Below, piece by piece: positions 4,100 through 50,338 of a DNA stretch of 64,000 nucleotides. This DNA is from Parcubacteria group bacterium Gr01-1014_20 (GTDB taxonomy: Bacteria > Patescibacteriota > Minisyncoccia > UBA6257 > 2-01-FULL-56-20). The notes under the pieces are model-generated. The model was not told the DNA's origin. It ran no database searches and saw nothing but the letters and a program-made list of their open reading frames with translations. How positions within the stretch are numbered: the stretch's first letter is position 1; every line of letters begins with the position of its first letter. Made by a program: the position numbers and the translations under genes. Location: NCBI GenBank assembly GCA_007376265.1, contig VMFW01000003.1, positions 1,315 to 65,314 of the forward strand, given 5' to 3'.

Positions 4100-6205
4100 A
4101 TGAAAAGAAAAGAATTTAAAACAGAAATAGGTGGGAAAACATTAACTTTGGAGGTGTCGGAGCTCGCGCCGCAAACGAACGCGGCGGTTTTGGCTAAATA
4201 CGGCGAGACAATCGCGCTTGTGACGGTGGTGATGTCTAAGAATGAATCAAGCGTGGATTACCTGCCGCTCAAGGTTGATTATGAAGAGAAGTTTTACGCG
4301 GCGGGAAAGATTATCGGTTCCAGGTTCATCCGTCGGGAGAGCAGGCCGTCGGAGGACGCGATTCTTTCGGGGCGGTTAGTGGATCGAACTTTAAGGCCTC
4401 TTTTTGATAATAGAATTAGACGAGAGATTCAAGTGGTGGTGACAATTTTATCTTACGATGAGGAAAATGATCCGGATTTTGTGGGCTTGATCGGAGCTTC
4501 GACGGCGCTCGCCATATCGGACGTGCCGTGGGACGGCCCGGTGGGCGGTGTCCGAGTGGCTAAGATTGGAGACAAGTTGGTAGTTAGTCCAGACAATTCT
4601 CTGATGCGAGGAGATGATTTTGTTTTTGAAACTTTTGTTTCTGGAGTTTCGGACAGAATCAACATGGTGGAGCTTGGAGGCAAGGAGGTAAGCGAAGCGG
4701 AAGTGGTGGAGGCGTTTAACTTGGCTCAGAAGGAGATCAACAAATTGGTTGATTTTCAAAAGTCAGTGATATCCGAGATTGGAAAGAAGAAAACGGAGCT
4801 TTTATTAGCCGAGATTGATCCGCAGGTTCGGGCCGAGGCGTCTAAGTTTTTATCCGATAAGCTCGAAGGAGCAGTTTATGTTAAAGACAAAGCTACCTAC
4901 TACGAAGGCTTGGCTAAATTAGGGAAGGAGCTTGTGGCCCACTTGGTTGAAATTTTTCCTGATCACGATAAATCAAGATTATCAAAGGATGCTCATTTTT
5001 TGTTTGATGAGGCGGTTGACCAACTCGTTCACAAAAATATTTTGGAGAAAGATAAGCGGCCGGACGGCCGAGCGTTGGATGAGGTTCGGGAGCTTCAGGG
5101 TGAGGTGGGGCTTTTCAAACGAACGCATGGCTCGGCGCTTTTTATGCGAGGAAATACGCATGCGCTAGCGGTTACGACCCTGGGTGCGCCTGGCGCGGAG
5201 CAGATCATTGAGACGATGGAGACGAATATGAAACGAAGATTTTTACTGCATTACAACTTTCCGCCGTATTCGGTGGGCGAGGTGGGGTCATTTAGGGGGC
5301 CGGGTCGCCGAGAAATTGGTCACGGAGCTTTGGCAGAGAAAGCCTTGAAGCATCTTATTCCATCTAAAGAAGCGTTTCCATATACGATTCGGGTGGTTTC
5401 AGAGATTATGTCTTCGAATGGTTCTTCTTCGATGGCCACGGTTTGTGCCAGCACACTTTCAATGATGGATGCCGGTGTGCCGATAAAAAGCCTAGCGGCC
5501 GGAACAGCGATGGGACTCATGTCGGACGAAAAAGGGAATTTTAAGGTTCTAACTGACATCCAAGGACCAGAGGATCACCATGGGGATATGGATTTTAAAG
5601 CGGCGGGGACAACGAATGGAGTGACTGCGATTCAAATGGACGTTAAGGTTTCAGGTGTGCCAATCGAAGTGCTGGTCAAAACTTTGGCCCAAGCGAAAGA
5701 AGCCCGACTACATATTTTGAAGTTTATGGGCGGCGTGATTGAAAAGCCGAGAGAGAAGGTTTCGGCATTTGCGCCGGCAATTTCGCATTTCATGATTAAT
5801 CCAGAAAAGATTGGAGTGGTGATTGGACCCGGCGGGAAGATGATTAACGGCTTGATTAAAAAGTACGAGCTTTCTGGAATTGATATTGACGAAGATGGGA
5901 CGGTGTTTGTTTCGGGGACGGATCACGCCAAGATGGAGCAGGCGGTCGCGGACATCAAAGCTTTAACCAGAGAGTTTGCTATCGGGGAAATTGTTGAGGG
6001 TAAGATTCTCAAGCTTTTGGATTTTGGCGCCATTCTTGACTTAGGTGGCGGAAAGGACGGGATGATTCATATTTCCGAATTTAAAAATGGTTTTGTAAAA
6101 GACATCAATGAGGTGGTTAAGCTGGGAGATTTTGTGCGGGCTAAAATTGTTAAGGTTGAAGACGGAAGGATTGGGCTTTCGGTCAAACAACTTCCGGGTT
6201 CGTAA
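4100..6205 (+). CDS. pnp: polyribonucleotide nucleotidyltransferase (PNPase)
   Basis: 701 aa with two RNase PH domains (FMRGNTHALAVTTLG; GPGRREIGHGALAEKAL), a KH domain (GVVIGPGGKMINGL) and an S1 domain (GEIVEGKILKLLDFGAIL). Confidence 0.95.
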   Translation: MKRKEFKTEIGGKTLTLEVSELAPQTNAAVLAKYGETIALVTVVMSKNESSVDYLPLKVDYEEKFYAAGKIIGSRFIRRESRPSEDAILSGRLVDRTLRPLFDNRIRREIQVVVTILSYDEENDPDFVGLIGASTALAISDVPWDGPVGGVRVAKIGDKLVVSPDNSLMRGDDFVFETFVSGVSDRINMVELGGKEVSEAEVVEAFNLAQKEINKLVDFQKSVISEIGKKKTELLLAEIDPQVRAEASKFLSDKLEGAVYVKDKATYYEGLAKLGKELVAHLVEIFPDHDKSRLSKDAHFLFDEAVDQLVHKNILEKDKRPDGRALDEVRELQGEVGLFKRTHGSALFMRGNTHALAVTTLGAPGAEQIIETMETNMKRRFLLHYNFPPYSVGEVGSFRGPGRREIGHGALAEKALKHLIPSKEAFPYTIRVVSEIMSSNGSSSMATVCASTLSMMDAGVPIKSLAAGTAMGLMSDEKGNFKVLTDIQGPEDHHGDMDFKAAGTTNGVTAIQMDVKVSGVPIEVLVKTLAQAKEARLHILKFMGGVIEKPREKVSAFAPAISHFMINPEKIGVVIGPGGKMINGLIKKYELSGIDIDEDGTVFVSGTDHAKMEQAVADIKALTREFAIGEIVEGKILKLLDFGAILDLGGGKDGMIHISEFKNGFVKDINEVVKLGDFVRAKIVKVEDGRIGLSVKQLPGS

Positions 6206-6230
6206 GTCATGAATCATGGAACACGAATCT

Positions 6231-6264
6231 TTCCTCCGGAAGAGGATCCGCCTTCGGCGGAGAA
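6231..6264. repeat. GGATCC-centred palindromic intergenic element, copy 1 (ttcctccggaagaggatccgccttcggcggag), preceded by an atcatg-type repeat
   Basis: Seen directly, just downstream of the pnp stop. Confidence 0.8.
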
Positions 6265-6292
6265 TCATGAAACATAAATCTGGGATTGGTAG

Positions 6293-6325
6293 TACTAAGG
6301 AGGAGTTCTAGTGGAGCTCCTTTTT
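6293..6325 (+). terminator. hairpin + T-run after pnp
   Basis: aaggaggagttctagtggagctcc then tttttt. Confidence 0.4.
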
Positions 6326-6362
6326 TGTTCTGGATTCAATCGTAGCCTGCTATAATTCAATC

Positions 6363-7340
6363 ATGGCCGATTATTTTGATCAGCAAGATCGTGGGGGTGT
6401 GAATTACGTGCCGCCGCCACCTAACGACGTGAGTATTCGGACGATGGAGTCCGATATTCGCTCGATGGCGCTTTCGGGCGGAAGTTTTGTGAGACCAGAT
6501 CAAGTTCCGATGTCTCAAAAGAACCAAGAGAAAACCCAAATTCCCTCTCCTTCGTCTGATTACACTCAGGGTCCAAGCGGTAAAAAATCAAAGGGTTTTT
6601 TGCCTTTAGTGGTTTTAGTTCTGATTATGCTTTTGGGAGCGCTTGGATATTTCTTATACCCTTTGTTTACCAAAAACTCCGGAACTCCACCCGCGAGTGA
6701 CGAGGAGGTTGGTTCAACCCCAAGTTTGCCAGAGGTATCGGGGGGCGCCATTTCTCCAAAATTTAATCACGAGTCTTTTTTTAGGAAGAGCGGGGACAGC
6801 GTGATTGATATGAACATAAAGTTTGCGGCCACCGAGATTACGGATTTGGAGAACTATGACCAAAAGGTGAATCGATTATTAACTCAAGTCCAGGAGGCCG
6901 AGGCTTTAGTTGAGTTTATCGCGAGGCGCGAGGGTGGCCAGCATCTCGCGCTTTCGGAGTTTTTTGAATACAGCAGCAACCAGGTTCTTACTTCTGAATT
7001 TATGGAACAGAACTTTAATCGGGACTTTACTTTTTTTACCTATAAAAACAAAGACGGTTTTTGGCCTGGACTGGTTATTCAACTTAATAAAGGAAAAAAC
7101 TGGGTGGTGGTTAAGCCAGAAGTTTCAAAGATGGAGAGGTCGGAGGATTTGAACGACTTTTTTATAACTTCTCCGGGGGATAGGGTGGGGGACTTTAAGG
7201 ATGTTTTGATTAGTGGTCAGGCGGCCAGGATTTTAAAATACTCGAAACCATCGGCAAATTTGGCTTATGGGTGGTTTCACGATTATCTAGTGATTAGCAC
7301 TTCGGACGAAGGATTGAGGATGGCCATTGAGAGGCTATAA
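6363..7340 (+). CDS. hypothetical membrane-anchored protein
   Basis: 325-aa ORF with one TM segment (LPLVVLVLIMLLGALGYFLYPLF) and no motif I recognise. Confidence 0.5.
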   Translation: MADYFDQQDRGGVNYVPPPPNDVSIRTMESDIRSMALSGGSFVRPDQVPMSQKNQEKTQIPSPSSDYTQGPSGKKSKGFLPLVVLVLIMLLGALGYFLYPLFTKNSGTPPASDEEVGSTPSLPEVSGGAISPKFNHESFFRKSGDSVIDMNIKFAATEITDLENYDQKVNRLLTQVQEAEALVEFIARREGGQHLALSEFFEYSSNQVLTSEFMEQNFNRDFTFFTYKNKDGFWPGLVIQLNKGKNWVVVKPEVSKMERSEDLNDFFITSPGDRVGDFKDVLISGQAARILKYSKPSANLAYGWFHDYLVISTSDEGLRMAIERL

Positions 7341-7442
7341 ATCCTGAATCCTGAATCATGAATCGTTAGACAGAAGGCATACGGGACACAAACGAAACAG
7401 AGTCGAAGTAGATTTAATTGGCTGACTAGCGGGAGGGTTGAT

Positions 7443-8465
7443 TTACTCTGGTGAGCTGTCAGTTTTTGGGTTTTTAAGAATTTTTTTCTTGATTTCACCC
7501 AGAAGTTTTTTGTCTTCTTTTAATTTCTCGCGGATGTTGTCGAAGCCAGTACCCAGGCGCTCACCTTCGAAGCTGTAGCTAGCGCCGGACTTAGTGACCA
7601 CGCCGGCTTTGAGGCCCGCGTTTAGGACATCGGCTTCGTAGGAGATGCCTTCTCCGTACATGATGTCGAACTCGGCTTGCTTGAAGGGAGCGGCCACTTT
7701 GTTTTTTACAACTTTAGCCTTAACTCGGGAGCCCACAATCTCCTCTCCCTTTTTAACTTGAGCGACGCGGCGAACGTCGATGCGGACCGAGGCGTAGAAT
7801 TTTAAAGCCCGGCCGCCGGGAGTAGTTTCGGGGTTGCCGAACATGATGCCGATTTTCATGCGGAGCTGGTTGATAAAAATTATAAGGGTGTTGGACTTAG
7901 CCGAGATGGCGGTAAGTTTTCGAAGAGCTTGAGACATCATACGGGCTTGAAGACCGATGAATTGAGCACCCATCTCACCTTCGATTTCGGCGCGAGGGGT
8001 TAGGGCGGCGACGGAGTCAACTACGATGACCGAGATCATGTTTGATCTGACTAAGGATTCAAGGATGTTGAGCGCTTCCTCGCCGTTGTCGGGCTGGGAG
8101 ATTAAAAGGTCGTTGATTTTAACGCCGAGTTTTTTGGCGTATTCGGGATCGAGGGCGTGTTCGGCATCGATGTAGGCGGTCTTGCCTCCTTGTTTTTGAG
8201 CTTGCGCAACGACATTTAGGGCGAGAGTGGTTTTGCCACTTGACTCTGGTCCAAAGATTTCTACAATCCGGCCCCGCGGGAGGCCGCCGACACCTAGGGC
8301 TAGGTCGAGAGAGAAGGAGCCGGTGGGGATTGAGGCGATATCAACTTTATGAGTTTCGCCGAGCGTCATGATGGCGCCTTCGCCAAACTTGCTGCGTAGA
8401 TTTGCAAGGAGGTCTTGAAGCTCGCTCTTCTCCGGTTTTTCTTCTTTGGTTCTTTTAGGGGTCAT
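7443..8465 (-). CDS. recA: recombinase RecA
   Basis: [19 protein letters not shown] (Walker A), IDAEHALDP and loop L1/L2 regions; 340 aa. Confidence 0.95.
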
Positions 8466-8559
8466 GGTGGTATTATTTTAGAGAAACTAGAAGTTTTTAA
8501 CAAGTTAATAGATGGACTCACAGCCACTAACGAAATTTGAAGGGAGGGGGGGTGAGAGA

Positions 8560-8868
8560 ATGAAAGAGTTTGGAGATCCTCGAAAGCTCCCTAGGGGCGG
8601 AGATGCCGATGGAACCTGCCTGAGGGTTGGCGCTGGTGCGGATGGCACGTAGTCAACCACTGTGATGGGTAACTCTGATTTTATCGGGTTGCCTCAACCT
8701 CAAACCAGGAGAGTTTTTATGTGTTATCCCAACGGGTTTTCGTTCTTCAGCTAACACCGATGCCGGAAAAGTTAGCGTTGTGGGGTCGGCGCCCGCAGAA
8801 GGACACCCGCCGAAGACGCGGGAAGATTTACCTAGAGCCGTTACGTAGGACGTAACGGCTCTTTTTAT
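8560..8868 (+). ncRNA. candidate structured RNA of unknown family, GC-rich, ending in an intrinsic terminator
   Basis: About 300 nt with clearly higher GC than its surroundings between two minus-strand genes. It ends with gagccgttacg-tagg-acgtaacggctc followed by tttttatt at 8836-8868. Only short spurious ORFs are present. I could not match RNase P, tmRNA, SRP or 6S motifs. Confidence 0.3.
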
Positions 8869-8892
8869 TATCGATTTCAAAGAAGGCCGAAA

Positions 8893-9609: not shown

Positions 9610-9615
9610 ATTTTT

Positions 9616-14477: not shown

Positions 14478-14972
14478 GTGTTGGAAATTATGAATCAAGT
14501 TTTGTTTAACAGCTCTTACGGATTGAAGCTTGATGTGCCTCAGGTGATCAAGGAGGTGATTGGGTTTATGAACCTGGATCCAAAGAGGAAATACAAGATA
14601 ACGATTGGGACCGATTCGGAACAACTGTCTTCAAATAAGGCAGATTTTGTGACGGCGATAGTGGTGCATCGAGTGGGAAACGGCGGACGATATTTTTGGA
14701 GGCGACAGGAATTTGGAAGATTTCATAACCTAAGGGATCGAATTATAAAGGAAGTAATGGTTTCTCTCGAGATGGCTAAGGATGTCCTCTCCTTGCTTAA
14801 GGAGCACAAAGAAATCGATTTCGATTTTGAGATTCACGCTGATATCGGAGAAAATGGTGAAACTAAAACGATGATTCAGGAAGTGGTGGGAATAATTCGG
14901 GCCTATAACTTTGAGCCGAAAACAAAACCAGGAAGTTACGCGGCCTCAAACGTTGCGGATAGGCATGTTTAA
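14478..14972 (+). CDS. YkuK/DUF458-like RNase H-fold protein
   Basis: KITIGTDSE ... FVTAIVVHRVGNGGRYF ... FEIHADIG resembles the YkuK family (predicted RNase H-like nuclease). Confidence 0.5.
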   Translation: MLEIMNQVLFNSSYGLKLDVPQVIKEVIGFMNLDPKRKYKITIGTDSEQLSSNKADFVTAIVVHRVGNGGRYFWRRQEFGRFHNLRDRIIKEVMVSLEMAKDVLSLLKEHKEIDFDFEIHADIGENGETKTMIQEVVGIIRAYNFEPKTKPGSYAASNVADRHV

Positions 14973-15055
14973 AAATCTTCTGGCAAAACATCGCCTCTAT
15001 TTTTAGTTGAATTTTTGATCCCACCGCCAACCCGAATGTTTTGCCAGAAGATTTT
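14966..15055. repeat. perfect 20-bp inverted repeat (aaaatcttctggcaaaacat / atgttttgccagaagatttt) around a ~50-nt loop
   Basis: Seen directly. It lies between the YkuK-like stop and the exonuclease start. Confidence 0.8.
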
Positions 15056-15071
15056 TGAACCACAGTTTTAA

Positions 15072-15659
15072 TTGAATATGGATACGATAGTTTTTGATAT
15101 CGAAACAAAGAACTTTTTTACCGACCCGGAGGTGGGTTGGAATAATTACGAGGCGCTCAAAATTTCGGTGGTGGGCGTCTATTCTTACGCTCAAGATAAA
15201 TATTTAGTTTTTGATGAAAATGAAATTGAAAAACTAGGGGAACTGCTTCGGGGCGCAGAAAGGTTAGTGGGATTTTCCATGAACCGATACGATGTGCCGG
15301 TTTTGCAGGCGCATTTTCTGGCTTTGCCAGTGACTCGGGATATAGATTTATGGAAGATGGAGCGGTCGGATTTGCTTGATGAAATCGAAATGGGCACAGG
15401 CAAGCGAATCAGTCTAAGTCGTTTGGCGGAAGTAAATTTAGGAGAGGCGAAAAAGAGCAGTGGGGCGGAGGCCATTGTCATGTATAAAGAGGGAAGGATC
15501 GAGGACCTTAAAAGATACTGTCTTGAAGACGTGCGAATTACAAAGGAACTTTATGACTTGTATAGGAAACAGGGATATCTCATGGTGCCAGACAGAGATA
15601 CGGGTGAGCTTTCACGCGTTGGTTATAGTTTGAGCGATAACCAGGGGAGTTTGTTTTAG
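15072..15659 (+). CDS. DEDD-type 3'-5' exonuclease (RNase H-like, PolB-exonuclease-like / YprB-like)
   Basis: IVFDIETKNFF (Exo I, DxE) ... GFSMNRYDVPVL (Exo II) ... YCLEDVRITKELYD (Exo III, Y..D). Confidence 0.6.
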   Translation: MNMDTIVFDIETKNFFTDPEVGWNNYEALKISVVGVYSYAQDKYLVFDENEIEKLGELLRGAERLVGFSMNRYDVPVLQAHFLALPVTRDIDLWKMERSDLLDEIEMGTGKRISLSRLAEVNLGEAKKSSGAEAIVMYKEGRIEDLKRYCLEDVRITKELYDLYRKQGYLMVPDRDTGELSRVGYSLSDNQGSLF

Positions 15660-17239: not shown

Positions 17240-19812
17240 ATGCCAAATTTTCATCGTTTTACTATTAAAGCCCAGGAAGCGCTTCAGAGCGCACAGGAAT
17301 TAGCGGCCAAAAAAAGTCATGGCGAGCTTAAGGCTTTGCATCTTCTCTCGATGTTGATCGAGGATCATCAGTCGCTAGTTCAGCCGGTTTTGGTGCGTTC
17401 TGGAATTAATATCGAGAAACTTCACGAGCAAATTGAAATTGAACTTTCGCGAGTTCCGAAATTGGTTAGCGGCTCAAACGTTAGCCAGCTTTATCTTTCT
17501 CAAGAGCTCATGACAATTCTTGATCAGGCGGCCAAGATCGCGGCGCAACAAAAAGATGAATTTATATCTTGCGAACATTTACTAATCGCGATTTTGGATA
17601 TTGCTTCCGGAGCGCAGGGGGTTTTGCAACAGTTTGGTTTGAGACGGGATGTGGCTCTTAAGATCTTGAATCAACTTCGAGGATCGGTCCGGATTACGGA
17701 TGAAACCCCCGAAACAAAATTTCAAGTACTCGAGAAGTATGGAATTAATGTGACTGAAAGAGCTAAGGCGGGGGAGTTGGACCCGGTGATTGGACGGGAT
17801 GAGGAGCTCCGGAGACTGATTCAGGTTTTGAGCCGGAGGACTAAGAACAATCCAGTTTTGATTGGAGAGCCGGGGGTGGGTAAAACCGCTATCGTGGAGG
17901 GTTTGGCTCAGAAAATTATCAGCGGGAACGTGCCCGAACCGCTCAAAGGCAAGCAGATTATCATGCTTGATTTGGGCGCATTAATTGCCGGGACAAAATT
18001 TAGGGGCGAGTTTGAAGATCGGCTAAAGGCCTTTATAAAGGAAGTTAAAAACGAAGCCGGGAGGATCATTCTTTTTATCGATGAGATTCATACGATTGTG
18101 GGGGCTGGGGCGGCCGAGGGGGCGATAGATGCGTCAAACTTATTGAAACCGGCGCTCGCTAGGGGGGAATTGCACGCGGTGGGCGCTACCACCATCCGAG
18201 AGTATCAGCGTTACATTGAGAAAGATCCGGCGCTTGAGAGGAGGTTTCAACCGATTATGGTGGATGAGCCATCTATAGAAGACAGCATCGCTATTCTTCG
18301 GGGGCTTAAGGAGAAGTATGAAATTCATCATGGGCTTCGGATTAGTGATGAAGCCATTGTGGAGGCGGTTAATTTGTCAGCGAGGTATATTACCGATCGA
18401 TTTTTGCCGGACAAGGCAGTGGATTTAATCGATGAGGCGTCGGCGGCGAGGAGGCTTGAGAGTGAGAGTTTGCCGAAAGAGATTGACCGAGTGAGGCAGC
18501 AGATCACTAAGTTTGAAGTTGAAAGGCAGGCCTTGCTTAAGGAGGGAGAGAAGGGGGGCGTAAGACTTAAGGAGATAGAGAGAGAGCTTCGAAAGTTAAA
18601 GCTTGAAAATGACGAGCTTTCGGCTAAGTGGCAGGCGGAAAAAATTGTCTTTGAAACCCTCCACGCCATTAGACAGAAAATTGACAATCTTAAGCGAGAG
18701 GCGGAAGTGTCAGAGCGAGATGGGAATCTGGAGCGCGTGGCGCAAATTATTTATGGCGAACTACCTCAGGCTCAGAAGGAGTTTGATGACTTTGAAAAGA
18801 AGCAGATTGGCAAAAAAGGAAAAAAAGCTAAGCAAGGGACTCGAAAGGTTGGAACGGAGGAAAGATTCCTAAAGGAGACGGTAGATAAAGAAGACATTGC
18901 GGCGGTAGTTTCGAGCTGGACCGGCATTCCTTTAAGGCGGTTTCGAACGCTCTGCGGAGATCGAGAGCAGGGCTTTCGGATGAAAGTCGCCCACTTGGCT
19001 CGTTTATGTTTTTGGGACCGACAGGAGTGGGAAAGACGGAGCTTGCCCGGGCGCTCGCGGAGTTTATGTTTAATGATGAAAAAGCCATGTTGCGTTTTGA
19101 CATGTCGGAATATATGGAACGCCACGCCACAGCGAGGCTAATCGGTTCGCCACCGGGTTATGTGGGCTATGAGGAGGGGGGGCAGTTAACCGAGGCGCTT
19201 CGCCACCGGCCGTACAGTATTATCCTTTTCGACGAAATAGAAAAGGCGCATCCGGAGGTTTTTAACTTGCTCCTGCAGATTTTGGATGACGGGAGGCTCA
19301 CTGACAGCAAGGGGAAACAGGTCAATTTCCGGAATTCTATCATCGTGATGACCTCGAATGCCGGAAGTCAGTACTTTAAGGAAATCTCGAACCTTGGGTT
19401 TGGATCGGATGATAAGGAAGCGAAGGAGGTGAGGGCTCACGACGATTATAGGGAGAGGGTGATGGAGTCTTTGCGGGAAAGTTTTCGGCCGGAGTTTTTG
19501 AACCGGGTGGATGAGATTATTGTTTTTAAACCTCTCAAGCTAACGGACATCGAGAGAATTGTTGACATTCAACTTCAAGCAATCGAGAAGAGATTATCAG
19601 CACATAAAATCCAGATTGCCATTGACGCCTCGGCTCGAGGGCACCTGGCGAAGGAGGGTTTTAGTCCAGAGTTTGGAGCGCGGCCGTTGAAACGGTTGAT
19701 TCAGAAGTTGATTTTGGATAGGCTTGCGGACCAGATCATTCGAGGGGAATTAAAGGATGGTGGAAAAGTTAAAGTTAATTTTAAGGCAAACTCATTGGTC
19801 TTTAGTCGTTAA
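17240..19812 (+). pseudogene. clpB: clpB chaperone disrupted by an ~80-nt internal deletion/frameshift (fragments 17240-19141 and 19006-19812)
   Basis: Frame A reads canonical ClpB through ...VSSWTGIPLRR (to ~18940). Frame B reads canonical NBD2 from AVSNALRRSRAGLSDESRPLGSFMFLGPTGVGKTELA (from ~18937). The ~28 residues that normally separate these motifs (MMESEREKLL...GQ.EAV) are missing, and the two halves are out of frame. Confidence 0.7.
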
Positions 19813-20473: not shown

Positions 20474-20533
20474 TGATAGAAAACAGAAAGTAGAAAATAG
20501 AGGACAAGACAAGGGGGAGGGGGTGTGAAACAT

Positions 20534-20625
20534 TCCGCCGGAGGCGGATCCGCCTTCCACCAGAGGTGGACTGCCCTTCGGCCAGTGGGCGGAGAATCAT
20601 GGAGCATGGATCATGGATCATGGGT
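20534..20625. repeat. GGATCC palindromic element, copy 2 (tccgccggaggcggatccgccttcc) plus ccaccagaggtgg palindrome plus atcatgg tandem repeat
   Basis: Seen directly, downstream of the membrane protein stop. Confidence 0.8.
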
Positions 20626-22310: not shown

Positions 22311-22507
22311 CCATTGGTCTCACCTTTCGTTCTAATGACTGATCCAGCCCGTTTTTGTGGTTTTCCACATAGGCATTCTTCATTGGCTGGGGTAGGATTG
22401 ATAGGTTAGGTTTTAAGGTTCAGGTCGCGCTTTTGCGCGACTCGTCTGCTAGCAGGGGACGAGTGAGGCTGAATTCTAAAAAACTTAGGTTTCAGAGTTT
22501 CAGGTTT

Positions 22508-22541
22508 TTCCTCCGGAGGAGGATCCGCCTCTGGCGGAAGG
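22508..22541. repeat. GGATCC palindromic element, copy 3 (ttcctccggaggaggatccgcctctggcggaagg)
   Basis: Seen directly. Confidence 0.8.
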
Positions 22542-42602: not shown

Positions 42603-43382
42603 ATGAAGCATGAAATTGATGAAAAGACTCAAATTGTGGCGCCTAGGGTGGTTTACGAAGAGCGAGATTTTCTGGTTATAAATAAGCCGTCCGGCTTGCT
42701 TGTTCACAAGACAACCAAATCTTCGAGCGAGGCGACGTTGGTTGATTGGCTCCTTATGAACTATCCCGAAGTCAGAAATGTCGGTGATAACAAAGAGTTT
42801 CGCCCAGGGATTGTTCATCGATTAGACAAAGCAACTTCGGGAGTAATGATCGTTCCCCGAAACCAGGAATATTTTGAGTATATAAAAAATCTTTTTAGGG
42901 AGAAGGGGGTAAAGAAGACTTACTTAGCGCTCGTTTACGGAAAGCCGAAAGATAAAATAGGGGTGATCGATAAGCCGATAGGTTTGAAGCCGGGGTCTAT
43001 AAAGAGAACTGTTTTTGGTGGGAAGATGAAAAAAGAAGCGGTGACGGAATACAAACTTGTATCATGTATCATGTATCATGTATCAAACGAAAAGAAAAAA
43101 GAAAAACCCACACAAGAAATCTCTCTTTTGGAAGTAACGCCGAAGACGGGGAGGACGCATCAGATTCGGGTACATTTGGCGAGTGTCGGATGTCCGGTTT
43201 TGAACGATTCAATTTATGCTCCGAAGAGAGAAAAAGTCGGGACGGGAAGGTTGATGCTCCACGCGCTCACGATTGAGTTTATCCAAAAGAACGGAAGGGG
43301 AATGAGGTTTGAGGCTGATCCGCCGAAAGAGTTTGGAGAAATAATTAGGGGGCTAGAGAGTGGTAGAAGCCATAAAGGCTAA
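42603..43382 (+). CDS. RluA-family pseudouridine synthase
   Basis: FLVINKPSGLLVHKT ... GIVHRLDKATSGVMIV (catalytic Asp motif) ... KTYLALVYG. Contains a 7-nt tandem repeat (gtatcat, ~3.6 copies) in frame at 43064-43090. Confidence 0.8.
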   Translation: MKHEIDEKTQIVAPRVVYEERDFLVINKPSGLLVHKTTKSSSEATLVDWLLMNYPEVRNVGDNKEFRPGIVHRLDKATSGVMIVPRNQEYFEYIKNLFREKGVKKTYLALVYGKPKDKIGVIDKPIGLKPGSIKRTVFGGKMKKEAVTEYKLVSCIMYHVSNEKKKEKPTQEISLLEVTPKTGRTHQIRVHLASVGCPVLNDSIYAPKREKVGTGRLMLHALTIEFIQKNGRGMRFEADPPKEFGEIIRGLESGRSHKG

Positions 43383-44826: not shown

Positions 44827-44876
44827 CCGTTTTAGGGATTACTAATTTAGGTACGAATATATACCAATTTACTTGG

Positions 44877-46592
44877 ATGAAATTACCGATTCCGGCGGAA
44901 CAACTCGAGAAGCGTTTGATTCAGGAGGGTCTTGTCACCCATGAGGCTTTTTCGGAGATCGTGGATGAATCGGGGCGAAAGAATCAGGACGTGATTGATC
45001 TTTTGATATCAAGAGGAATGGTTGAGGGGCGCTATTTGCATAATATCCTGGCGTCGCTTTTGGGCGTGCCGCTCGCATCATTTGAGACCCGCCAGTTCGA
45101 CAAAGAGTTGGTCAAGACTTTGCCTGAAGAAGTGGCCAGAAAGAGAGAGGTGATTATTTTCTCGAAGGAAGAGGATGGGTCTTTAAATGTGGCGATGGCT
45201 GATCCGAGTGACTTGGATACGGTTAAGTACCTCTCTCAATTTTTTGGAGCCAAGATCAATTCCTTTTTAGCCACTGGTTCGGATTTAAATAAGGGTTTTT
45301 CGGTTTATGGCCGACAGTCGGCCCAGGATTTTAAAAAATTAATTGAGGACAATATTCAGGAGTCGCTTCGGGGGCAGGCGAAGACAATTGAGGAGGCGGC
45401 GGCGCTTCTGCCGATTGTTTCGATCGTTGACAACCTGCTTTCTTACGCCATTTCGTCTCGGACGTCGGATATTCACATTGAGGTTTTGGAAGACGTAACA
45501 ATGGTGAGATACCGAATTGACGGAATTCTTTTTGAAATCATGAGAATTCCTAAAGCTATTCATAATGCGATTATCGCCAGAATCAAGATTTTATCCGGCC
45601 TTAAGATTGACGAGCATTATAAACCCCAGGATGGTCGGTTTCACTATCAGATTGTCAATCAGACTGTGGACGTGCGTGTTTCGATTCTACCCACTTTTTA
45701 TGGCGAGAAGGTGGTGATGCGTTTGCTCGAGGCTTCCCAAAAGCCGCTTTCACTTGAGGAACTTGGAATGTTGCCGGATACAGCCAGGATTGTTTCTGAA
45801 AATCTGAAAAAGGCTTACGGGATGGTTCTTTCGTGCGGACCAACCGGATCGGGTAAAACCACCACCCTCTACGCACTGATGGATATTTTGAATAAACCGA
45901 ATGTAAACATTGTGACGGTCGAGGATCCAATCGAATACAACATGCGCTACGTGAATCAGACACAGATGAACCCGCAAGCCGGTATTACATTTGCCTCGGG
46001 ACTCCGCGCGATTTTGAGGCAGGATCCGAACATCATTATGGTGGGTGAGATTCGGGACGCAGAAACCGCTGGAATCGCAGTGCAAGCGGCCTTAACCGGA
46101 CACTTACTCTTATCTTCGCTTCATACAAACGACGCCCCGACCGTTATCCCGAGATTGTTTGACCTAGAAGTGCCGCCATTTTTAGTGGTTTCAGTTTTGA
46201 ACATTATCGTCGCTCAACGGTTGGTGCGAAAAATTTGTCAGACGTGCATTTCATCCTATGAGATAACTCCTGAGATCAGTCGAGTTGTTCAAGAACAGTT
46301 GAAAGAGCTTGCGATTGACGCTGATAAGGTTAAACCACCAAAGAATTTTTATAAAGGAAAAGGTTGTGTGAGTTGCAGTGGGACTGGATACCGGGGGCGG
46401 TTAGGTATCTTTGAGGTTCTGGACGTGAATGAAAAGGTAAAATCTATAATCTTGGGCACCGATTTTACCTTAGAAAAACTGAGGCTAGCTTCGAGGGTAG
46501 CGGGTATGAGGACAATGTTTGAGGATGGATTACAGAAGGTTGAGCTCGCAATGACGACGGTTGATGAGATTTTGAGAGTAATCAGGGAGTAG
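44877..46592 (+). CDS. pilB: type IV pilus assembly ATPase PilB (GspE family)
   Basis: N-terminal GSPII domain; Walker A LSCGPTGSGKTTTLYA; Asp box and His box region; C-terminal tetracysteine motif (CQTC ... CVSCSGTG). Confidence 0.95.
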   Translation: MKLPIPAEQLEKRLIQEGLVTHEAFSEIVDESGRKNQDVIDLLISRGMVEGRYLHNILASLLGVPLASFETRQFDKELVKTLPEEVARKREVIIFSKEEDGSLNVAMADPSDLDTVKYLSQFFGAKINSFLATGSDLNKGFSVYGRQSAQDFKKLIEDNIQESLRGQAKTIEEAAALLPIVSIVDNLLSYAISSRTSDIHIEVLEDVTMVRYRIDGILFEIMRIPKAIHNAIIARIKILSGLKIDEHYKPQDGRFHYQIVNQTVDVRVSILPTFYGEKVVMRLLEASQKPLSLEELGMLPDTARIVSENLKKAYGMVLSCGPTGSGKTTTLYALMDILNKPNVNIVTVEDPIEYNMRYVNQTQMNPQAGITFASGLRAILRQDPNIIMVGEIRDAETAGIAVQAALTGHLLLSSLHTNDAPTVIPRLFDLEVPPFLVVSVLNIIVAQRLVRKICQTCISSYEITPEISRVVQEQLKELAIDADKVKPPKNFYKGKGCVSCSGTGYRGRLGIFEVLDVNEKVKSIILGTDFTLEKLRLASRVAGMRTMFEDGLQKVELAMTTVDEILRVIRE

Positions 46593-46597
46593 GCAAC

Positions 46598-46735
46598 GCT
46601 GGTTCATTGCTTTTCAGAACCGCGGTTGTCCGATTCCAGCGATCGGACCCCGCTGCCGCTCACTCCGACGGCCCTTCAGGACCAAGCCCGTCGGAGCTCC
46701 GAGAGCTTCCGAAAAGCAATGAACCAGCTTTTTGT
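46598..46735 (+). repeat. 18-bp perfect inverted repeat (gctggttcattgcttttc / gaaaagcaatgaaccagc) enclosing a ~95-nt GC-rich multi-hairpin core, followed by a T-run
   Basis: Seen directly in the pilB-pilC spacer. Inner palindromes gtccgat..atcggac and ccgacgg..ccgtcgg. Confidence 0.75.
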
Positions 46736-47976
46736 TTGGGGGTGAGTGTTTTATAATATTAGGGAACATGCTTTTTCATTATTTGGCAGCGGATAAAGAG
46801 GGGAAGATTACAGAGGGGGATCTTGAAGTAGATGATTTTAATCAGGCTTTGCAGTTTTTAGCCGGGCGGGAGCTAAGGCCAATTTCGGTTAAACCCCTTA
46901 AGGGGGGCGAGGGTATTTCTTCACGGAGGATTTTTGGCACCATCAATCTGACCGATAAGATTTTTTTGTGTCGTTATTTGGCGCTCATGCTTCGGGTGGG
47001 GACGGATCTCTTGTCGGCCGTGAATATTCTGATTTCGGATTTTGATAAGCCAGCGATGAAAGAGTTTTTGATGGAGGTGCGCGATAATATCGGTCGGGGC
47101 CAACCACTTTATTCGGTCTTTGCAAAATATCCAAAAATTTTCTCGGCGGTTTTTGTAAATTTGGTTAAAGCGGCGGAGGCCTCTGGCAACCTTCAGGAAA
47201 CATTCGAAAGCTTGGCGGTCTCACTTTCTAAGGAGGCTGCATTGCGGAGCACGATTAAAGCGGCCTTGGTTTATCCGCTTGTGTTGCTTTTCACTTCCTT
47301 AGGAATTTTTCTTTTTTTAGTCACGTTCGCCTTACCTAAAATCGCTAAAGTTTTTCAAGAAAGTGGAATTCAGGCCCCGCTTTTTTCGCGAGTGGTTTTT
47401 GCGATTGGCCTTTTCATAAACGAGCACGCCTTCACTTTTATCGGGGGAATTGTGCTGGCTATTTTGCTTGGGGGTTACTTCTTTGGGATGAATATTATCG
47501 GTCGGCGACTAGCTCGGAGTTTTTTTGGGAAGCTACCAATTATTAAAAAAGTTTTTCACGAGCTGGCAATCCAGAGATTTGCTTCGACAACAAGCTCCTT
47601 GCTCAAGGCTGGTTTACCCATTGTTCAGACTTTGAATATCGCCGCCGATACCGTGAATGTCGAGGAATTTCGCCATGCCCTAAAAAGGGTTAGCGAGGAG
47701 GGATTAACGAAGGGACTTACAGTCGGTGACGCTTTTAAGCGCGAGATTATTTTTCCAAGGCTCGTGACAAACTTAATTGCGATTTCTGAAAAGGCCGGAC
47801 ACTTAGAGGATGTGTTGCAGACCCTCTCTGAGTTTTATTCGGCGAGGGTGGAGGCGGCCATAAAGTCACTGGTTTCATTTCTTGAGCCGGTGCTCCTTCT
47901 AACCATGGGTCTTTTGGTAGGTTTGGTGGCTATTTCGATCATTATTCCTATCTATCAACTTACTTCGCAGTTCTAA
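46732..47976 (+). CDS. pilC: type IV pilus inner-membrane platform protein PilC (GspF family)
   Basis: Two GspF repeats, e.g. IFLCRYLALMLRVGTDLLSAVNILI and LVTNLIAISEKAGHLEDVLQ. The true start is probably the ATG at ~46765 (MLFHYLAADKEG). Confidence 0.9.
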   Translation: MFGGECFIILGNMLFHYLAADKEGKITEGDLEVDDFNQALQFLAGRELRPISVKPLKGGEGISSRRIFGTINLTDKIFLCRYLALMLRVGTDLLSAVNILISDFDKPAMKEFLMEVRDNIGRGQPLYSVFAKYPKIFSAVFVNLVKAAEASGNLQETFESLAVSLSKEAALRSTIKAALVYPLVLLFTSLGIFLFLVTFALPKIAKVFQESGIQAPLFSRVVFAIGLFINEHAFTFIGGIVLAILLGGYFFGMNIIGRRLARSFFGKLPIIKKVFHELAIQRFASTTSSLLKAGLPIVQTLNIAADTVNVEEFRHALKRVSEEGLTKGLTVGDAFKREIIFPRLVTNLIAISEKAGHLEDVLQTLSEFYSARVEAAIKSLVSFLEPVLLLTMGLLVGLVAISIIIPIYQLTSQF

Positions 47977-48050
47977 ATCATGAAACATGAAGCATAAGAA
48001 ATACAATGGAAACGTGTTAGATCGATTACAATAGTAAAATGATTCAAGAT

Positions 48051-48083
48051 TTCCTCCATAGGAGGATCCGCCTCTGGCGGATG
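48051..48083. repeat. GGATCC palindromic element, copy 4 (ttcctccataggaggatccgcctctggcggatg), preceded by atcatgaaacatgaag
   Basis: Seen directly. It overlaps the 5' end of the track ORF 48039. Confidence 0.8.
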
Positions 48084-48644
48084 AGCTCCAATATTCATGG
48101 CCGAGGGGGGTTTACGATGATCGAGAGTCTGATCGTGGTGGCGCTTATTTTGTTTTTTGGGACAATCGCGCTCTTAAATCTTGGGCCCCGGAAAAATACT
48201 AAAGAATTTGCATCGACGGTAGAAAAGATTGTGCATATATTTGAGATGACGAGGAATAAAGCGGTAAACTTCGAAGGAGGGGACAGGTGGCTCGTGGCAC
48301 TCAGGTCTTCCGCTTGCCCCACTACTTACGGGCCGTTGCCTGCCGAAACGGCAGGACTAGCCATCTATTTTTCCTCTGCTCCTAATAGCAACGGTGTTTT
48401 TGATAGTTTTTACGCGTTGCCGGTGAGCGTGGCTTATGACGAAAGTGTGACTTTTTGGTCAATTTCATGTCCCACTGCCAAGCACATATATTTTGCCGGA
48501 CTGACGGGTCAGCCTTCCGAATCCAACTATATGCCATATCTCAAGATTTATATGATTTCTGATCCGCGGGTTTCTTCGACGATATCCGTATCAACATCAA
48601 CGGGACTCGTCAGTTACACGACGTCGTCGCTGTGGAGTTTTTAA
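48081..48644 (+). CDS. type IV pilin-like protein (minor pilin / pseudopilin)
   Basis: RGGFTMIESLIVVALILFFGTIALL: a class III signal with Glu+5. The start is chosen at ATG 48081 (MSSNIHGRGG/FTMIESL); 48117 is an alternative. Confidence 0.8.
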   Translation: MSSNIHGRGGFTMIESLIVVALILFFGTIALLNLGPRKNTKEFASTVEKIVHIFEMTRNKAVNFEGGDRWLVALRSSACPTTYGPLPAETAGLAIYFSSAPNSNGVFDSFYALPVSVAYDESVTFWSISCPTAKHIYFAGLTGQPSESNYMPYLKIYMISDPRVSSTISVSTSTGLVSYTTSSLWSF

Positions 48645-48653
48645 CCTACAAAG

Positions 48654-49307
48654 ATGTTTTTTAATCAGGCGAAGAAATTTAGAAATGGGCAGTCGCTCAT
48701 CGAGATACTAGTCGCGATTGCGGTTGGAGTGGTGATGCTTGGGGTGGCGATATCAATTATTGCCCCCGTTCTTAAGGCTAACACTCGCACTAACGAAGCG
48801 AAGGTGGCGGCGGCTTTGGGTCGGGAACTCTTGGAGAATACTCGGGTTTTTGTTGAGCGAGACTGGAATAATTTAGCGGTACTTTCCACGAGCTCGCTTT
48901 ACTCTTACCATTTGACTACCAGCACGGCCGCACCGGATTTTCCATTCCGTAAAATCGATGGAGTAGAGTCGATTGTAATTAGCAGCACGACCTACTTGAG
49001 ACACTTTAATGTCGATGACGTTTGTAGGAGTGGTAACGGAATTATTCAAGCTGATCCAGGACAATGTATTTATGTCGATCCGAGTACTAAAAAGGTGTCG
49101 GTAGTTTATGGGTGGCTGGGGGGATCGACTAGTTCGTTTTCGACTTATTTTACCAGGTTTAAAAATAGATCGATGAGTCAAAGTGATTGGTCTGGCGGAG
49201 ACTCTTTCTGGGGTCCGACCACTACCACCACGACCAGGTTTGTAACTTCCACTAACACAACCAGCACAAACGGTATAATTAGAATCGAGGAGGTTATTTC
49301 TGGCTAA
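48654..49307 (+). CDS. type IV pilin-like protein (minor pilin)
   Basis: KKFRNGQSLIEILVAIAVGVVMLGVAISII: a class III signal with Glu+5. Confidence 0.75.
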   Translation: MFFNQAKKFRNGQSLIEILVAIAVGVVMLGVAISIIAPVLKANTRTNEAKVAAALGRELLENTRVFVERDWNNLAVLSTSSLYSYHLTTSTAAPDFPFRKIDGVESIVISSTTYLRHFNVDDVCRSGNGIIQADPGQCIYVDPSTKKVSVVYGWLGGSTSSFSTYFTRFKNRSMSQSDWSGGDSFWGPTTTTTTRFVTSTNTTSTNGIIRIEEVISG

Positions 49308-49313
49308 GTTTTT

Positions 49314-50306
49314 ATGAAAAACAGATCTACCATTTTTTGGGTTTTAATCGGGACAGCGGTTTTTCTCTCGGCCGGATTTTATTTTTTGCAGGTAGCGGAG
49401 AGGGTTGGAGCGGTCACTAATATTCATTCCACCTCGACTGATCACTGGGGCTGGAACGACCTGATGGGTTGGCAGGATTTTTATAGCAAAGGCAATGTGT
49501 TTGTGAAGCCGCTTAAGGTGGTGGGGGTAGTGAGTTCGACTATCGGGGACGTTGTGTTGCACTGTGAGAGCGATCCGGTGAGCGGTTGTAGCGGGCCGGC
49601 TGGAAATTGGGGGGTGTTAAATGCCGGGGGCCAGCTTTCGGGCTGGGCCTGGAATGATGTGGTGGGTTGGATTAGTTTTTGCGGGAAACCAGGTGGTGTA
49701 GGGGGCTGTTTTCCGAGTCTTACAACTTACGGGGTGACAGTCAGTAATTTGATTACCGGCAGCGATGAACCACCAAGTGATTTTTCTGGTTGGGCTTGGA
49801 ATGCTTCCGTGGGTTGGTTTAACTTTAACTGTTCTAATTTAGCGCCAACCGAACCGGCCTGGTGTGATATTTCGAGTTCGACTTCTTATGCCGCCGGGTA
49901 TAAGGTCAGAACCGATTGGTCGGCTACTTCGACTTACGGCAGTCTTTACTCAGCGGTGTTTGATGCTGGCTCCAATTTTCCGGTCGATTATAACTCGGTG
50001 GCTTGGGTGGGCACCAAACCGGCAGGGACGGATGTTTTTTTTCAGCTCGCAGTTCGGAACGATTGTAGTGGCGGACTTCCTACTTGCGCTGATGATACTT
50101 GGAATTTCACTGGCCCCGGGGGATCGACCTCAACTTTTTACCTCACTAATGTATATGGTTTTCAGAAGGGGATTTATTATGCTACCTTCGGTCGGGATTT
50201 TATCAATGCGGGGAGATATTTTAGGTATCGAATAAGGCTCAAGTCGGATTCGGCCCGGACGGAAACCCCCTCGGTCTACAAGGTTAACATTGATTGGACC
50301 TACTAG
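49314..50306 (+). CDS. hypothetical secreted/anchored protein with three Trp-rich repeats (GWxWNxxxGWxxF), embedded in the pilus gene cluster
   Basis: N-terminal TM/signal segment (IFWVLIGTAVFLSAGFYFL). Repeats HWGWNDLMGWQDF, GWAWNDVVGWISF and GWAWNASVGWFNF. I recognise no family. Confidence 0.55.
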   Translation: MKNRSTIFWVLIGTAVFLSAGFYFLQVAERVGAVTNIHSTSTDHWGWNDLMGWQDFYSKGNVFVKPLKVVGVVSSTIGDVVLHCESDPVSGCSGPAGNWGVLNAGGQLSGWAWNDVVGWISFCGKPGGVGGCFPSLTTYGVTVSNLITGSDEPPSDFSGWAWNASVGWFNFNCSNLAPTEPAWCDISSSTSYAAGYKVRTDWSATSTYGSLYSAVFDAGSNFPVDYNSVAWVGTKPAGTDVFFQLAVRNDCSGGLPTCADDTWNFTGPGGSTSTFYLTNVYGFQKGIYYATFGRDFINAGRYFRYRIRLKSDSARTETPSVYKVNIDWTY

Positions 50307-50338
50307 GAGGAGAAGGCGGATCCTCCTCCGGAGGAAGG
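50305..50338. repeat. GGATCC palindromic element, copy 5, inverted orientation (ggaggagaaggcggatcctcctccggaggaagg)
   Basis: Seen directly, overlapping the stop codon of the Trp-repeat gene. Confidence 0.8.

Follow-up and report, generated by a model that had tools for sequence, protein, structure and literature searches.

A 30-nt double-hairpin element dispersed through genes and spacers of Patescibacteria

Several kinds of short, hairpin-forming elements have been described. The mitochondrial double-hairpin elements of Allomyces and other fungi and the GC clusters of yeast are GC-rich sequences of about 25–80 nt with two adjacent hairpins; they are found in AT-rich spacers, introns, rRNA and protein genes, with evidence of mobility and no encoded enzyme. 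The palindrome-associated transposable elements (PATEs) derived from IS200/IS605 make no target duplication, have ends defined by hairpins in single-stranded DNA and use a short conserved 5' target, and REP elements (repetitive extragenic palindromes) and REPINs are mobilised by RAYT tyrosine transposases. In Rickettsia, the Rickettsia palindromic elements (RPEs) are inserted in frame into unrelated housekeeping genes, and also into spacers and RNA genes, the encoded peptide being tolerated (PMC10969869). REP sequences and bacterial interspersed mosaic elements (BIMEs) are GC-rich imperfect palindromes of 20–40 bp in high copy number, which lie mostly downstream of genes and occasionally inside them and are thought to act as DNA and RNA hairpins (PMC3733652). 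The element described here is a 30-nt double hairpin with five copies in a 64,000-nt stretch of Parcubacteria group bacterium Gr01-1014_20 (contig VMFW01000003.1, positions 1,315 to 65,314; hereafter the window). It looks like a previously undescribed element of the REP, RPE and mitochondrial double-hairpin kind; full-text literature searches of 8 million papers and preprints, including a search by sequence, found no description of it. We put at about 0.6 the probability that its copies represent a Patescibacteria-wide, non-autonomous, structure-dependent mobile element.

A first-pass annotation of the window had listed five repeat sites, and all five were recovered where it placed them. With the pattern TCCTCCNNAGGAGGATCCGCCNNNGGCGGA and up to 3 mismatches, three sites (6232, 22509 and 48052) matched, against 0.00 expected from 100 dinucleotide-preserving shuffles. 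Repeat finding joined a variant near 20532 (copy 2) to the family of these three, and inverted repeat pairs linked to the same 30-nt family a fifth copy at about 50306–50335 (near 50312). In total, the window holds four complete copies, one of them with a nested second unit, and one truncated inverted copy, a density of about 1 copy per 13 kb:

6232–6261, forward strand: copy 1, TCCTCC GGA AGAGGA / TCCGCC TTC GGCGGA; 26 nt past the PNPase stop, in the middle of a tandem array of 7-nt units (heptamer array)
20534–20593, forward strand: copy 2, a 60-nt composite with the outer unit TCCGCC GGA GGCGGA / TCCGCC T..TG GGCGGA
20556–20585, forward strand: unit nested in copy 2, TCCACC AGA GGTGGA / CTGCCC TTC GGCCAG; a double 6-3-6 hairpin with 1 mismatch
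22509–22538, forward strand: copy 3, the consensus form TCCTCC GGA GGAGGA / TCCGCC TCT GGCGGA; an AGGTTTC array lies just before it
48052–48081, forward strand: copy 4, TCCTCC ATA GGAGGA / TCCGCC TCT GGCGGA; 75 nt past the pilC stop, within the open reading frame (ORF) 48039–48644
50306–50335, reverse strand: copy 5, truncated and inverted; the forward strand has GGAGGA in place of TCCGCC, then GAA GGCGGA / TCCTCC TCC GGAGGA

Across 121–135 instances, the unit is exactly 30 nt long and reads TCCTCC-NRA-GGAGGA/TCCGCC-TYN-GGCGGA, or in its broader form TCCKCC-NRA-GGMGGA/TCCKCC-TYN-GGMGGA, i.e., two abutting 6-bp stems with 3-nt loops. Loop 1 is GGA in 45 copies, GAA in 40, AGA in 19 and AAA in 8; loop 2 is TCC in 54, TTC in 21, TCT in 17 and TTT in 10. 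Given these loop forms, the reverse complement has the same form as the element itself, which is therefore two-fold symmetric save for the T/G difference between the stems. The abutting palindromes with 6-bp stems of the first-pass annotation describe the general form well, with three departures in the window: the first stem of copy 1 has only 5 bp owing to a G>A change (one stem mismatch), copy 2 is composite, and copy 5 is truncated. In copy 2, hairpin 1 (TCCGCC/GGCGGA) is a compensatory T>G/A>C variant and a second 6-3-6/6-3-6 unit sits inside the 3-nt loop of hairpin 2; the same nested form is also present at another locus (L077). A search of 0.85 Mb for double 6-3-6 hairpins, one mismatch at most being allowed, gave 118 TCCTCC/TCCGCC pairs, all other kinds together numbering only a handful. 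Single hairpins of the element on their own are rare and flank no gene, and a split autonomous element, with hairpins 1 and 2 around a cargo, was rejected on these grounds.

Folded as DNA, copies 1–4 form two hairpins on either strand (−9.9 to −11.1 kcal/mol, z −2.4 to −3.6), and for each strand the fold of lowest energy is the double hairpin. The two abutting hairpins of copy 1 give −9.9/−10.0 kcal/mol (z −2.4), copy 3 gives −11.1 kcal/mol on both strands (z −3.1/−3.5), and the composite of copy 2 reaches −18.8 kcal/mol (z −3.8), while copy 5, missing its outer half-stem, has no double-hairpin fold (z −0.9). Rfam at the gathering threshold found only four tRNAs in the whole window and no match on the element, and at E ≤ 1 around copies 2 and 3 it returned chance-level matches only. 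Base pairing was examined in 20 distinct copies that lie within a Hamming distance of 3 from the degenerate consensus and do not match the search pattern. In these variants, 96% of the cells are paired and 6 of the 12 pairs show two-sided changes (CCCTCC/GGAGGG, TCCACC/GGTGGA, TCTGCC/GGCAGA, CCCGCC/GGCGGG and TCGGCC/GGCCGA); values as high as these did not arise in any of 500 shuffles, and pairing in slid controls was 31–58%. The pairing of the stems is thus actively maintained through compensatory changes.

The first-pass annotation had regarded the family as genome-specific. We scanned one genome per GTDB species for the 22-mer TCCTCCNNARGAGGATCCGCCT, with 20 specified bases, for which we estimate about one chance match in the whole collection; the scan returned at least 116 stretches from at least 57 assemblies, many of them with several loci. 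Among the matches listed, 45 of the 57 assemblies are titled as lineages of the candidate phyla radiation (CPR), namely Kaiser-, Lipton-, Harrison-, Jorgensen-, Nomura-, Uhr-, Magasanik-, Doudna-, Levy- and Saccharibacteria as well as Parcubacteria, Paceibacteria, Minisyncoccia and Patescibacteria; 9 are titled 'bacterium' only, and 3 bear other names. The 30-nt element is therefore spread over many Patescibacteria (CPR) lineages and is not the property of one genome. The loci from other genomes were analysed as 8-kb pieces. As for the three other names among the matches listed, the Nocardiopsis match (L063), within a coding (TCCGCC)n repeat, is probably due to chance, and the metagenome-assembled genomes (MAGs) of Brocadiia (L065) and Cloacimonadota (L071) contain complete cores, which could be mis-binned CPR contigs or genuine occurrences. 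The 22-mer pattern had no match among the 2.9 million viral contigs of IMG/VR, and a phage origin was rejected accordingly.

Filled and empty versions of the same site were available for three comparisons, and in each the difference is a clean insertion of 30 or 60 nt without target-site duplication. Around copy 2, the order of genes (ClpB, a 238-aa ORF, a nucleotidyltransferase and a DeoR-like gene) is conserved in relatives. The relative with a 93% identical transferase (L119) has the heptamer array without the core, its site being empty (GAAACGT/GAATCATG) where the window has the 60-nt composite: L119 reads ...ATCATGAAACGT/GAATCATGAAGC... and the window ...GTGAAACAT/60 nt/GAATCATGGAGC.... 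At the same site, a relative with 85% identity (L123) has a 49-nt spacer with neither array nor core, and one with 66% identity (L124) has a 10-nt spacer. At the site of copy 3, L123 reads AAAAAAGTTGCAGTTGAGCCC, without core and array, in place of the window's AAAAAACTT-AGGTTTCAGAGTTTCAGGTTT-core-AGGTTGAGGGC. Copies 2 and 3 are gains of recent date in spacers, or else precise losses in the relatives. Copy 4 is identical, including its ATA loop, at the same site in the closest relative, whose PilC is 96% identical (L126), and is absent from 22 more distant pilC loci, so that only 1 of 23 relatives' loci carries it. In 164 kb of syntenic DNA from relatives, no copy was found against 12.8 expected at the density of the window.

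A further comparison lies within a single genome. In L049, a truncated tRNA-Ser(UGA), of which nt 1–45 remain, reads CTTG/core/AAATGCGG, and the adjoining intact gene reads CTTGAAATGCGG, which together demonstrate an exact 30-nt insertion with no duplication. The position is that between anticodon nucleotides 35 and 36, and it holds the core likewise in truncated tRNAs that are Gln-like (L023/L024), Glu-like (L075) and Ser-like (L082); these remnants adjoin intact tRNA genes. L106 has a fragment ACTTG/core/AAATGCGGT just downstream of a tRNA-Ser. The 17 nt upstream of the two tRNA copies in L049 are similar as well, suggesting that the DNA was duplicated in tandem before the insertion and the decay took place.

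The flanks of the element usually share a pattern (TTK/MAA), T-rich on the 5' side and A-rich on the 3' side, which is alike in coding and non-coding copies. On the left, T stands at −2 in 90% of the copies and at −3 in 65%, with T, G or C at −1; on the right, A stands at each of +1, +2 and +3 in 55–64%. No covariation between the flanks beyond these base preferences was found at positions ±1 to ±12, and a closing stem formed by the flanks was discarded. A general targeting of hairpin loops was likewise rejected, a stem of at least 4 bp being present at 15.8% of the sites against 13–17% in controls; only a small tail is enriched, with stems of at least 7 bp at 5 of 120 sites.

Many copies lie in genes. 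Elsewhere than in the window, 66 of 121 copies (55%) are inside frames that run 600 nt or more from stop to stop, a liberal gene call raising the count to 88 (73%), and the placement right after gene stops, which the first-pass annotation took as the defining property, does not hold beyond the window. Copies do occur in the genes of relatives, a case that the annotation had also raised, but as insertions of the same element and not as ancestral conserved coding sequence. Within the 66 ORF copies, 57 (86%) are in frame 0, with TCC TCC read as codons, 24 in forward and 33 in reverse orientation. As TCC is the reverse complement of GGA, and GCC that of GGC, the flexible peptide S[SA]xGGS[AS]xGG results from either orientation. 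The preference for flanks alone would place 39–49% of the copies in frame 0, against the 86% observed (p = 2e-10), and target preference alone was therefore rejected as the cause of the bias; the excess argues that the coding copies are translated and that their peptide is under selection.

The coding copies survive almost only in frame 0 and in loops or tails of housekeeping proteins, the Ser/Gly peptide usually being preceded by a hydrophobic residue and followed by Lys. The host proteins include AlaRS, DnaK (in the C-terminal tail), GyrA (at two positions), two class I aminoacyl-tRNA synthetases, RecG, GlmS, LepA and LigA; flanking sequence suggests the hinge of L7/L12 as a further host. 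A relative's PNPase (63% identical) reads ...GLMM-SSEGGSASGG-KVKYKVLTD where the window reads ...GLM-SDEKGNFKVLTD, and a relative's GyrB has GSAKGGSSSGG opposite a gap in the GyrB of the window.

None of the window copies lies within a large gene, and copy 4 is among the rare in-ORF copies outside frame 0. It is read in frame 2, as FLHRRIRLWR in a pseudopilin leader (…GRGG/FTMIE): the product of ORF 48039–48644 begins MIQD-FLHRRIRLWR-MSSNIHGRGG/FTMIESLIVVALI, with a prepilin-type leader and N-methylation motif, its match to Pfam N_methyl (E = 0.003) being below threshold. In L126 the upstream ATG is retained, whereas ACA occupies the position of the internal ATG that the window has at 48081, and an element-free relative reads MISE-MRNSRREG/FTLIE at this locus. 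On this evidence, translation of the core of copy 4 probably gives a basic segment of the leader, which is removed by cleavage. At 48060–48083, the GGAGGA arm is Shine-Dalgarno-like, AGGAGG standing 15 nt before the ATG at 48081 with hairpin 2 between them; at L009 6102 and L022 1521, the end of the element stands 11 nt upstream of an opposite-strand start codon.

The DNA outside ORFs has an excess of copies, making up about 17% of the sequence and containing 45% of the copies. Those in intergenic DNA are spread over the spacer types as in the background (17 co-directional, 3 convergent and 2 divergent), 6 being oriented with and 11 against transcription, and we found no preference for gene ends or for orientation beyond background, so that the post-stop enrichment expected earlier was not observed. 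Relative to GC skew, 47 copies have the G-rich and 37 the C-rich strand orientation (p = 0.33); a bias towards a replication or transcription strand was accordingly dismissed. In the window, the distances of copies 1–5 to the preceding stop are 26, 60, 198 (past the DeoR-like gene), 75 and 0 nt; the statement that four of five lie within about 60 nt of a stop thus stands for three only. Copy 1 lies in the 3' region of pnp amid a run of at least 7 heptamer units, and copy 5 abuts the natural stop of ORF 49314–50306, for which relatives share the ending ...NW(S/T)(P/Y) before the stop.

The stems are also maintained between orthologous copies. In three pairs of such copies from different assemblies, whose flanks are 68–70% identical over 170–300 nt, 71 of 72 stem bases are kept, and of the 18 loop bases only 12; if the stems diverged as the flanks do, such identity would have a probability of about 2e-10. 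A compensated CCCTCC/GGAGGG variant is common to the orthologous second copies in L037 and L050. Since the third positions of 8 of the 12 stem codons are four-fold degenerate, selection at the protein level cannot explain the identity of the stems.

The association with short tandem arrays, which formed part of the first description as a REP/MITE-like family (MITE, miniature inverted-repeat transposable element), was upheld together with the dispersed, small and palindromic character of the copies. A two-unit ATCATGR pattern has 28 matches in the window against 6.1 expected, all on the forward strand, and several of these arrays, which Tandem Repeats Finder reported too, begin in or just past stop codons. 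The 7-mer array noted earlier inside an RluA-family gene is also present. The principal arrays of the window are as follows:

6206–6284, forward strand: array around copy 1, GTCATGA ATCATGG AACACGA ATCTT/core/G AATCATG AAACATA AATCTGG
7338–7367, forward strand: (TGAATCC)n array, beginning in the stop codon of ORF 6363–7340; no core
20596–20623, forward strand: (ATCATGG)x4 array directly 3' of copy 2; core-free in L119
22487–22507, forward strand: AGGTTTC AGAGTTTC AGGTTT, directly 5' of copy 3; absent in L123
42593–42612, forward strand: ATCATGR-type array overlapping the start of the RluA-family gene (42603–43382)
43058–43085: (TGTATCA)x4 inside the RluA-family gene
47974–47999, forward strand: TAAATCA TGAAACA TGAAGCA TAAG, beginning in the pilC stop codon

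Of about 300 arrays of 2.8 or more copies that Tandem Repeats Finder reported in all CPR loci (L001–L116) and the window, 191 have period 7, and 88 of these 191 lie in the 17% of the sequence outside long open frames. The unit, which returns at numerous unrelated intergenic positions and often begins within or just past a stop codon, is specific to the lineage: ATCATGR in the window and its relatives (L119, L126, L145 and L077), and GTTAGGN, AGAATCC, GTAGGTA, AAAATTG or AACTTTA in others. The array after pilC has 4 units in the window versus 6 in L126, and relatives have heptamer arrays of their own at the spot that matches copy 5. Where cores lie between heptamer units, imperfect direct repeats surround many intergenic copies (around copy 1, AATCATGGAACACGAATCT / AATCATGAAACATAAATCT), and these are not target duplications. 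For 16 cores an array of period 5–9 is present no more than 60 nt away, where random positions would give 7; this excess may in large part simply mirror the intergenic location. A role of the arrays as three-frame stop traps was rejected, with 155 stop-containing units against 151.6 after shuffling. Different relatives hold different heptamer arrays in the same orthologous spacer, after the homologue of ORF 49314. At 43058–43106, (TGTATCA)x4 is followed by (AAAAGAA)x2.4 within the pseudouridine synthase domain and is translated ...VSCIMYHVSNEKKKEK...; the first codons of the RluA-family gene (MKHE) are formed by an ATCATGR-type array, and MKH... mini-ORFs also follow copy 1 and pilC. The short tandemly repeated repetitive (STRR) heptamers of cyanobacteria are likewise lineage-specific and tandem at many intergenic sites. 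The same is true of the TAACTGA repeats of Beggiatoaceae, lineage-specific heptanucleotides repeated in tandem 2–6 times at many intergenic sites (PMC4679880). Both kinds differ from the arrays here in phylum and unit, and no inserted double hairpin has been described for either.

Taken together, these features allow a comparison with the systems introduced above. The mitochondrial double-hairpin elements offer the closest likeness, as an analogy only that implies no common descent; they are organellar, their coding copies are not known as frame-symmetrical Ser/Gly linkers, and some GC clusters duplicate a short target. The likeness to RPEs lies in a non-autonomous, palindromic element placed in frame in unrelated genes. 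RPEs, however, are about 100–150 bp long, belong to one genus and form several families, each with its own peptide, whereas the element here has 30 nt and one consensus superphylum-wide, is codon-palindromic, giving the same Ser/Gly linker either way, and shares no sequence similarity with them. With REPs it has in common a 30-nt palindromic unit in many copies (5 in 64 kb and several per assembly). REPs bear an unpaired GTAG/CGTC tag (PMC3733652), which is lacking in the flank logo of the 121 copies, (C/A/T)TT(T/G/C) on the left and (A/G/C)AA on the right; REPs are also largely extragenic, specific to a species or family and arranged as inverted pairs, whereas this element has two different hairpins in tandem and is mostly intragenic outside the window. 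Like PATEs, it makes no target duplication, has hairpin ends and carries a preferred flanking base (the T at −2); unlike them, it is shorter than 100 nt and shows no strand bias of the lagging-strand kind. PATEs co-occur with TnpA; approximate queries gave no match to Y1 in the 8-kb pieces.

MITEs have terminal inverted repeats and a target-site duplication and measure about 50–500 bp, in contrast to 30 nt and no duplication here. The uptake sequences of transformable bacteria (uptake signal sequences, USS, and DNA uptake sequences, DUS) occur about once per kb, clade-wide and by point mutation, unlike an inserted element present once per 13 kb. Intrinsic terminators combine a hairpin with a U-tract oriented with the gene, and copies 1–4 are without a T-run. 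Box C/D guides in tandem beside a Tas gene constitute the TIGR-Tas arrays of CPR (PMC12045711), which are not comparable. With no GTAG/CGTC tag, no terminal inverted repeats or target-site duplication, and a differing size, host range and sequence, the element is a member of none of the compared systems. Distinctive are its minimal size, its codon-level palindrome giving the same linker both ways, and one consensus across a superphylum.

If the copies are indeed those of a mobile element, as we favour, the hairpins would arise where DNA is single-stranded or extruded. Triloops of the form R-N-A with a C·G closing pair are known as unusually stable DNA mini-hairpins; together with the two-fold symmetry and the lack of a transcription-strand rule, their presence here suggests that the hairpins are read at the DNA level. 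A trans-acting activity, a candidate being a hairpin-specific enzyme of HUH/Y1 type, would recognise them; alternatively, the copying could proceed by copy-choice or template switching at stalled forks, with the TT/AA flanks as microhomology. Hairpin recognition, combined with gene conversion or transfer between lineages, would hold the stem sequence constant. The landing sites comprise heptamer arrays, the loops of other hairpins (those of another element or the anticodon loops of redundant tRNAs) and protein-coding genes. The window's copies would be passengers, carried in spacers and in a signal-peptide leader that is cleaved, and whatever influence they have on the 3' ends of mRNAs would be secondary.

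Several points weigh against this interpretation. Tblastn searches with Y1 and RAYT queries over 0.9 Mb of window and flanks, a small sample, gave no match at E < 0.1, the query sequences being approximate. The replication-strand bias of the IS200/IS605 kind is absent, and insertion sites generally have no hairpin context, so that loop targeting is true of a minority only. The polarity of gain versus precise loss is drawn by parsimony from three lineages. Moreover, one consensus over whole CPR classes is hard to explain by selfish spread alone, and stems that are invariant over deep divergence are unlike a decaying selfish insert and point to a host-level function or a conserved reader. This invariance is the chief fact left unexplained by a purely 'dead selfish insert' model. 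A more ambitious version, in which conserved CPR hairpin machinery copies a superphylum-wide codon-palindromic cassette, fixes its stems, writes Ser/Gly linkers into proteins (PNPase, gyrase, DnaK, aminoacyl-tRNA synthetases and L7/L12) and makes or uses the heptamer arrays, is possible, and we propose it tentatively.

The same invariance bears on the explanation that the element is kept by selection as a functional site at which a protein conserved in CPR, for instance one concerned with the nucleoid, topoisomerase, recombination or RNA stability, binds or processes DNA or RNA, the spread of copies being incidental. The near-identity of orthologous stems beside drifting loops and flanks of about 70% identity, the identical consensus over many CPR classes and the compensatory changes that preserve pairing would all suit such a site, and in E. 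coli REP/BIME elements bind gyrase and IHF. Against this, the distribution is patchy, with no copy in the 164 kb of relatives and close genomes differing in presence and absence; copies lie inside essential genes, in tRNA remnants and nested in one another, without a rule of position or orientation relative to genes, and a required site is not expected inside protein loops. We therefore consider a host function unlikely. A spread by biased uptake and recombination, with the element as a DNA uptake signal for the type IV pili/ComEC competence machinery, much as for USS and DUS in Pasteurellaceae and Neisseriaceae, seems very improbable. That machinery is near-universal in CPR, USS within coding regions favour tolerated frames, and conservation at orthologous sites beyond neutral expectation, occurrence in both orientations in spacers and in a tolerated frame of genes, and absence from viral contigs would all agree with an uptake signal. 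However, known uptake sequences number about one per kb, far denser than here, and many relatives have none; the copies arise as clean 30-nt insertions and not through accumulated point mutations, and a receptor that binds duplex DNA would not impose the selection on intrastrand pairing.

An RNA element in 3' untranslated regions that stabilises or terminates transcripts past gene stops, the role first proposed, is improbable as well. Copies 1, 2 and 5 do lie 0–60 nt past stops, the remnant hairpin of copy 5, the only one scored as terminator-like, is followed by a weak T-run, copies outside ORFs are in excess, and the RNA folds are stable (−15 to −18 kcal/mol). Yet the z-scores of these folds are weaker than for DNA (−1.3 to −2.9), Rfam has no match, a U-tract is missing from four of the five copies, terminator-like hairpins of their own lie downstream of copy 3, intergenic copies are oriented against transcription as often as with it (11 and 6), and most copies elsewhere lie in ORFs, in frame, or in tRNA remnants; with no T-run in copies 1–4 and no rule of orientation, a terminator was rejected. 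Finally, it is scarcely credible that there is no element at all and that chance low-complexity Gly/Ser coding, a GGATCC restriction motif or an artefact of assembly or library preparation produced the pattern. The peptide is of low complexity, GGATCC is the BamHI site and contigs tend to break at the element; but the expected count is 0.00, non-coding DNA and tRNA remnants contain the identical nucleotides, orthologous copies are common to different genomes, and the records, almost only from CPR, come from many independent projects and assemblers. The restriction-modification link that GGATCC had suggested was abandoned, since neither GGATCC (16 in the window versus 15.8 expected) nor GATC (263 versus 245) is enriched or avoided, and GGATCC is a mere junction of the ...GGA of hairpin 1 and the TCC... 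of hairpin 2.

The window has 46% G+C with a strongly positive GC skew throughout, and encodes PNPase, RecA, FtsK, GyrB, a XerD-like recombinase and a type IV pilus operon. It equals the ENA contig ERZ27284378:k139_471004 save for one 81-nt deletion, and its closest relatives come from Hainich groundwater metagenomes. At 18934–18940, the window is without 81 nt found in the ENA contig (L117 1163–1243) that encode ...KRMLETESEKLIRIEEVLGERVIGQEEAI...; the deletion, between short direct repeats (AAGCGG / AAGGCGG), splits ClpB into the overlapping ORFs 17240–19141 and 19006–19812, whereas ClpB is a single gene of 886 aa in L117 and 883 aa in L119. For the same strain, the Logan contig L118 terminates within copy 3, at 22534, and independent assemblies of the strain and of the 93% identical relative break or have gaps near this site (the end of L118, an N run at L119 5660–5759 and the ends of L120–L122); the element seems to fragment short-read assemblies. 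At 22420–22480, upstream of copy 3, a conserved block ...GGTTCAG-(hairpin)-GAGTGAGGCTGAAT... (L123 2130–2210; L124 5830–5900) lies between the DeoR-like gene and a gene for a 1142-aa peptidoglycan-binding protein in relatives down to 66% protein identity, and may be a small structured RNA or leader; Rfam gave no match to it at E ≤ 1. Two near-perfect palindromes of 34–39 nt (TATCCCATCCTACGATCGTAGGATGGGATAGTTT; 87–91% alike) at 954–996 and 1661–1699 surround a 197-aa ORF (1061–1654, reverse strand) that is PadR/PaaX-like with a Cas2-like middle domain and lies between tRNA-Leu (842–925) and the XerD-like tyrosine recombinase (1706–2596); they could be operators of this regulator or the ends of a small cassette. 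Two further inverted repeats are unrelated in sequence to the double hairpin: at 14967–15060, 25-nt arms with 96% complementarity stand 44 nt apart between ORFs 14478–14972 and 15072–15659, and at 46595–46731, 25-nt arms (92%) that are 87 nt apart fill the pilB–pilC spacer.

The CPR or Patescibacteria, organisms with tiny genomes of which hardly any are in culture, represent a major part of bacterial diversity. A 30-nt sequence that is common to many CPR classes and almost absent elsewhere provides a simple diagnostic marker for binning, and the element accounts for some contig breaks in assemblies. It also represents a natural experiment, in which selfish DNA inside essential genes yields a benign Ser/Gly linker whichever its orientation. 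If the reading as a cassette copied by conserved machinery proves true, the element would mark CPR genomes and at the same time drive the evolution of their proteins. The finding raises the question of what holds 24 stem bases invariant over deep divergence, the answer to which implies a hairpin-reading activity in these organisms that is yet to be discovered.

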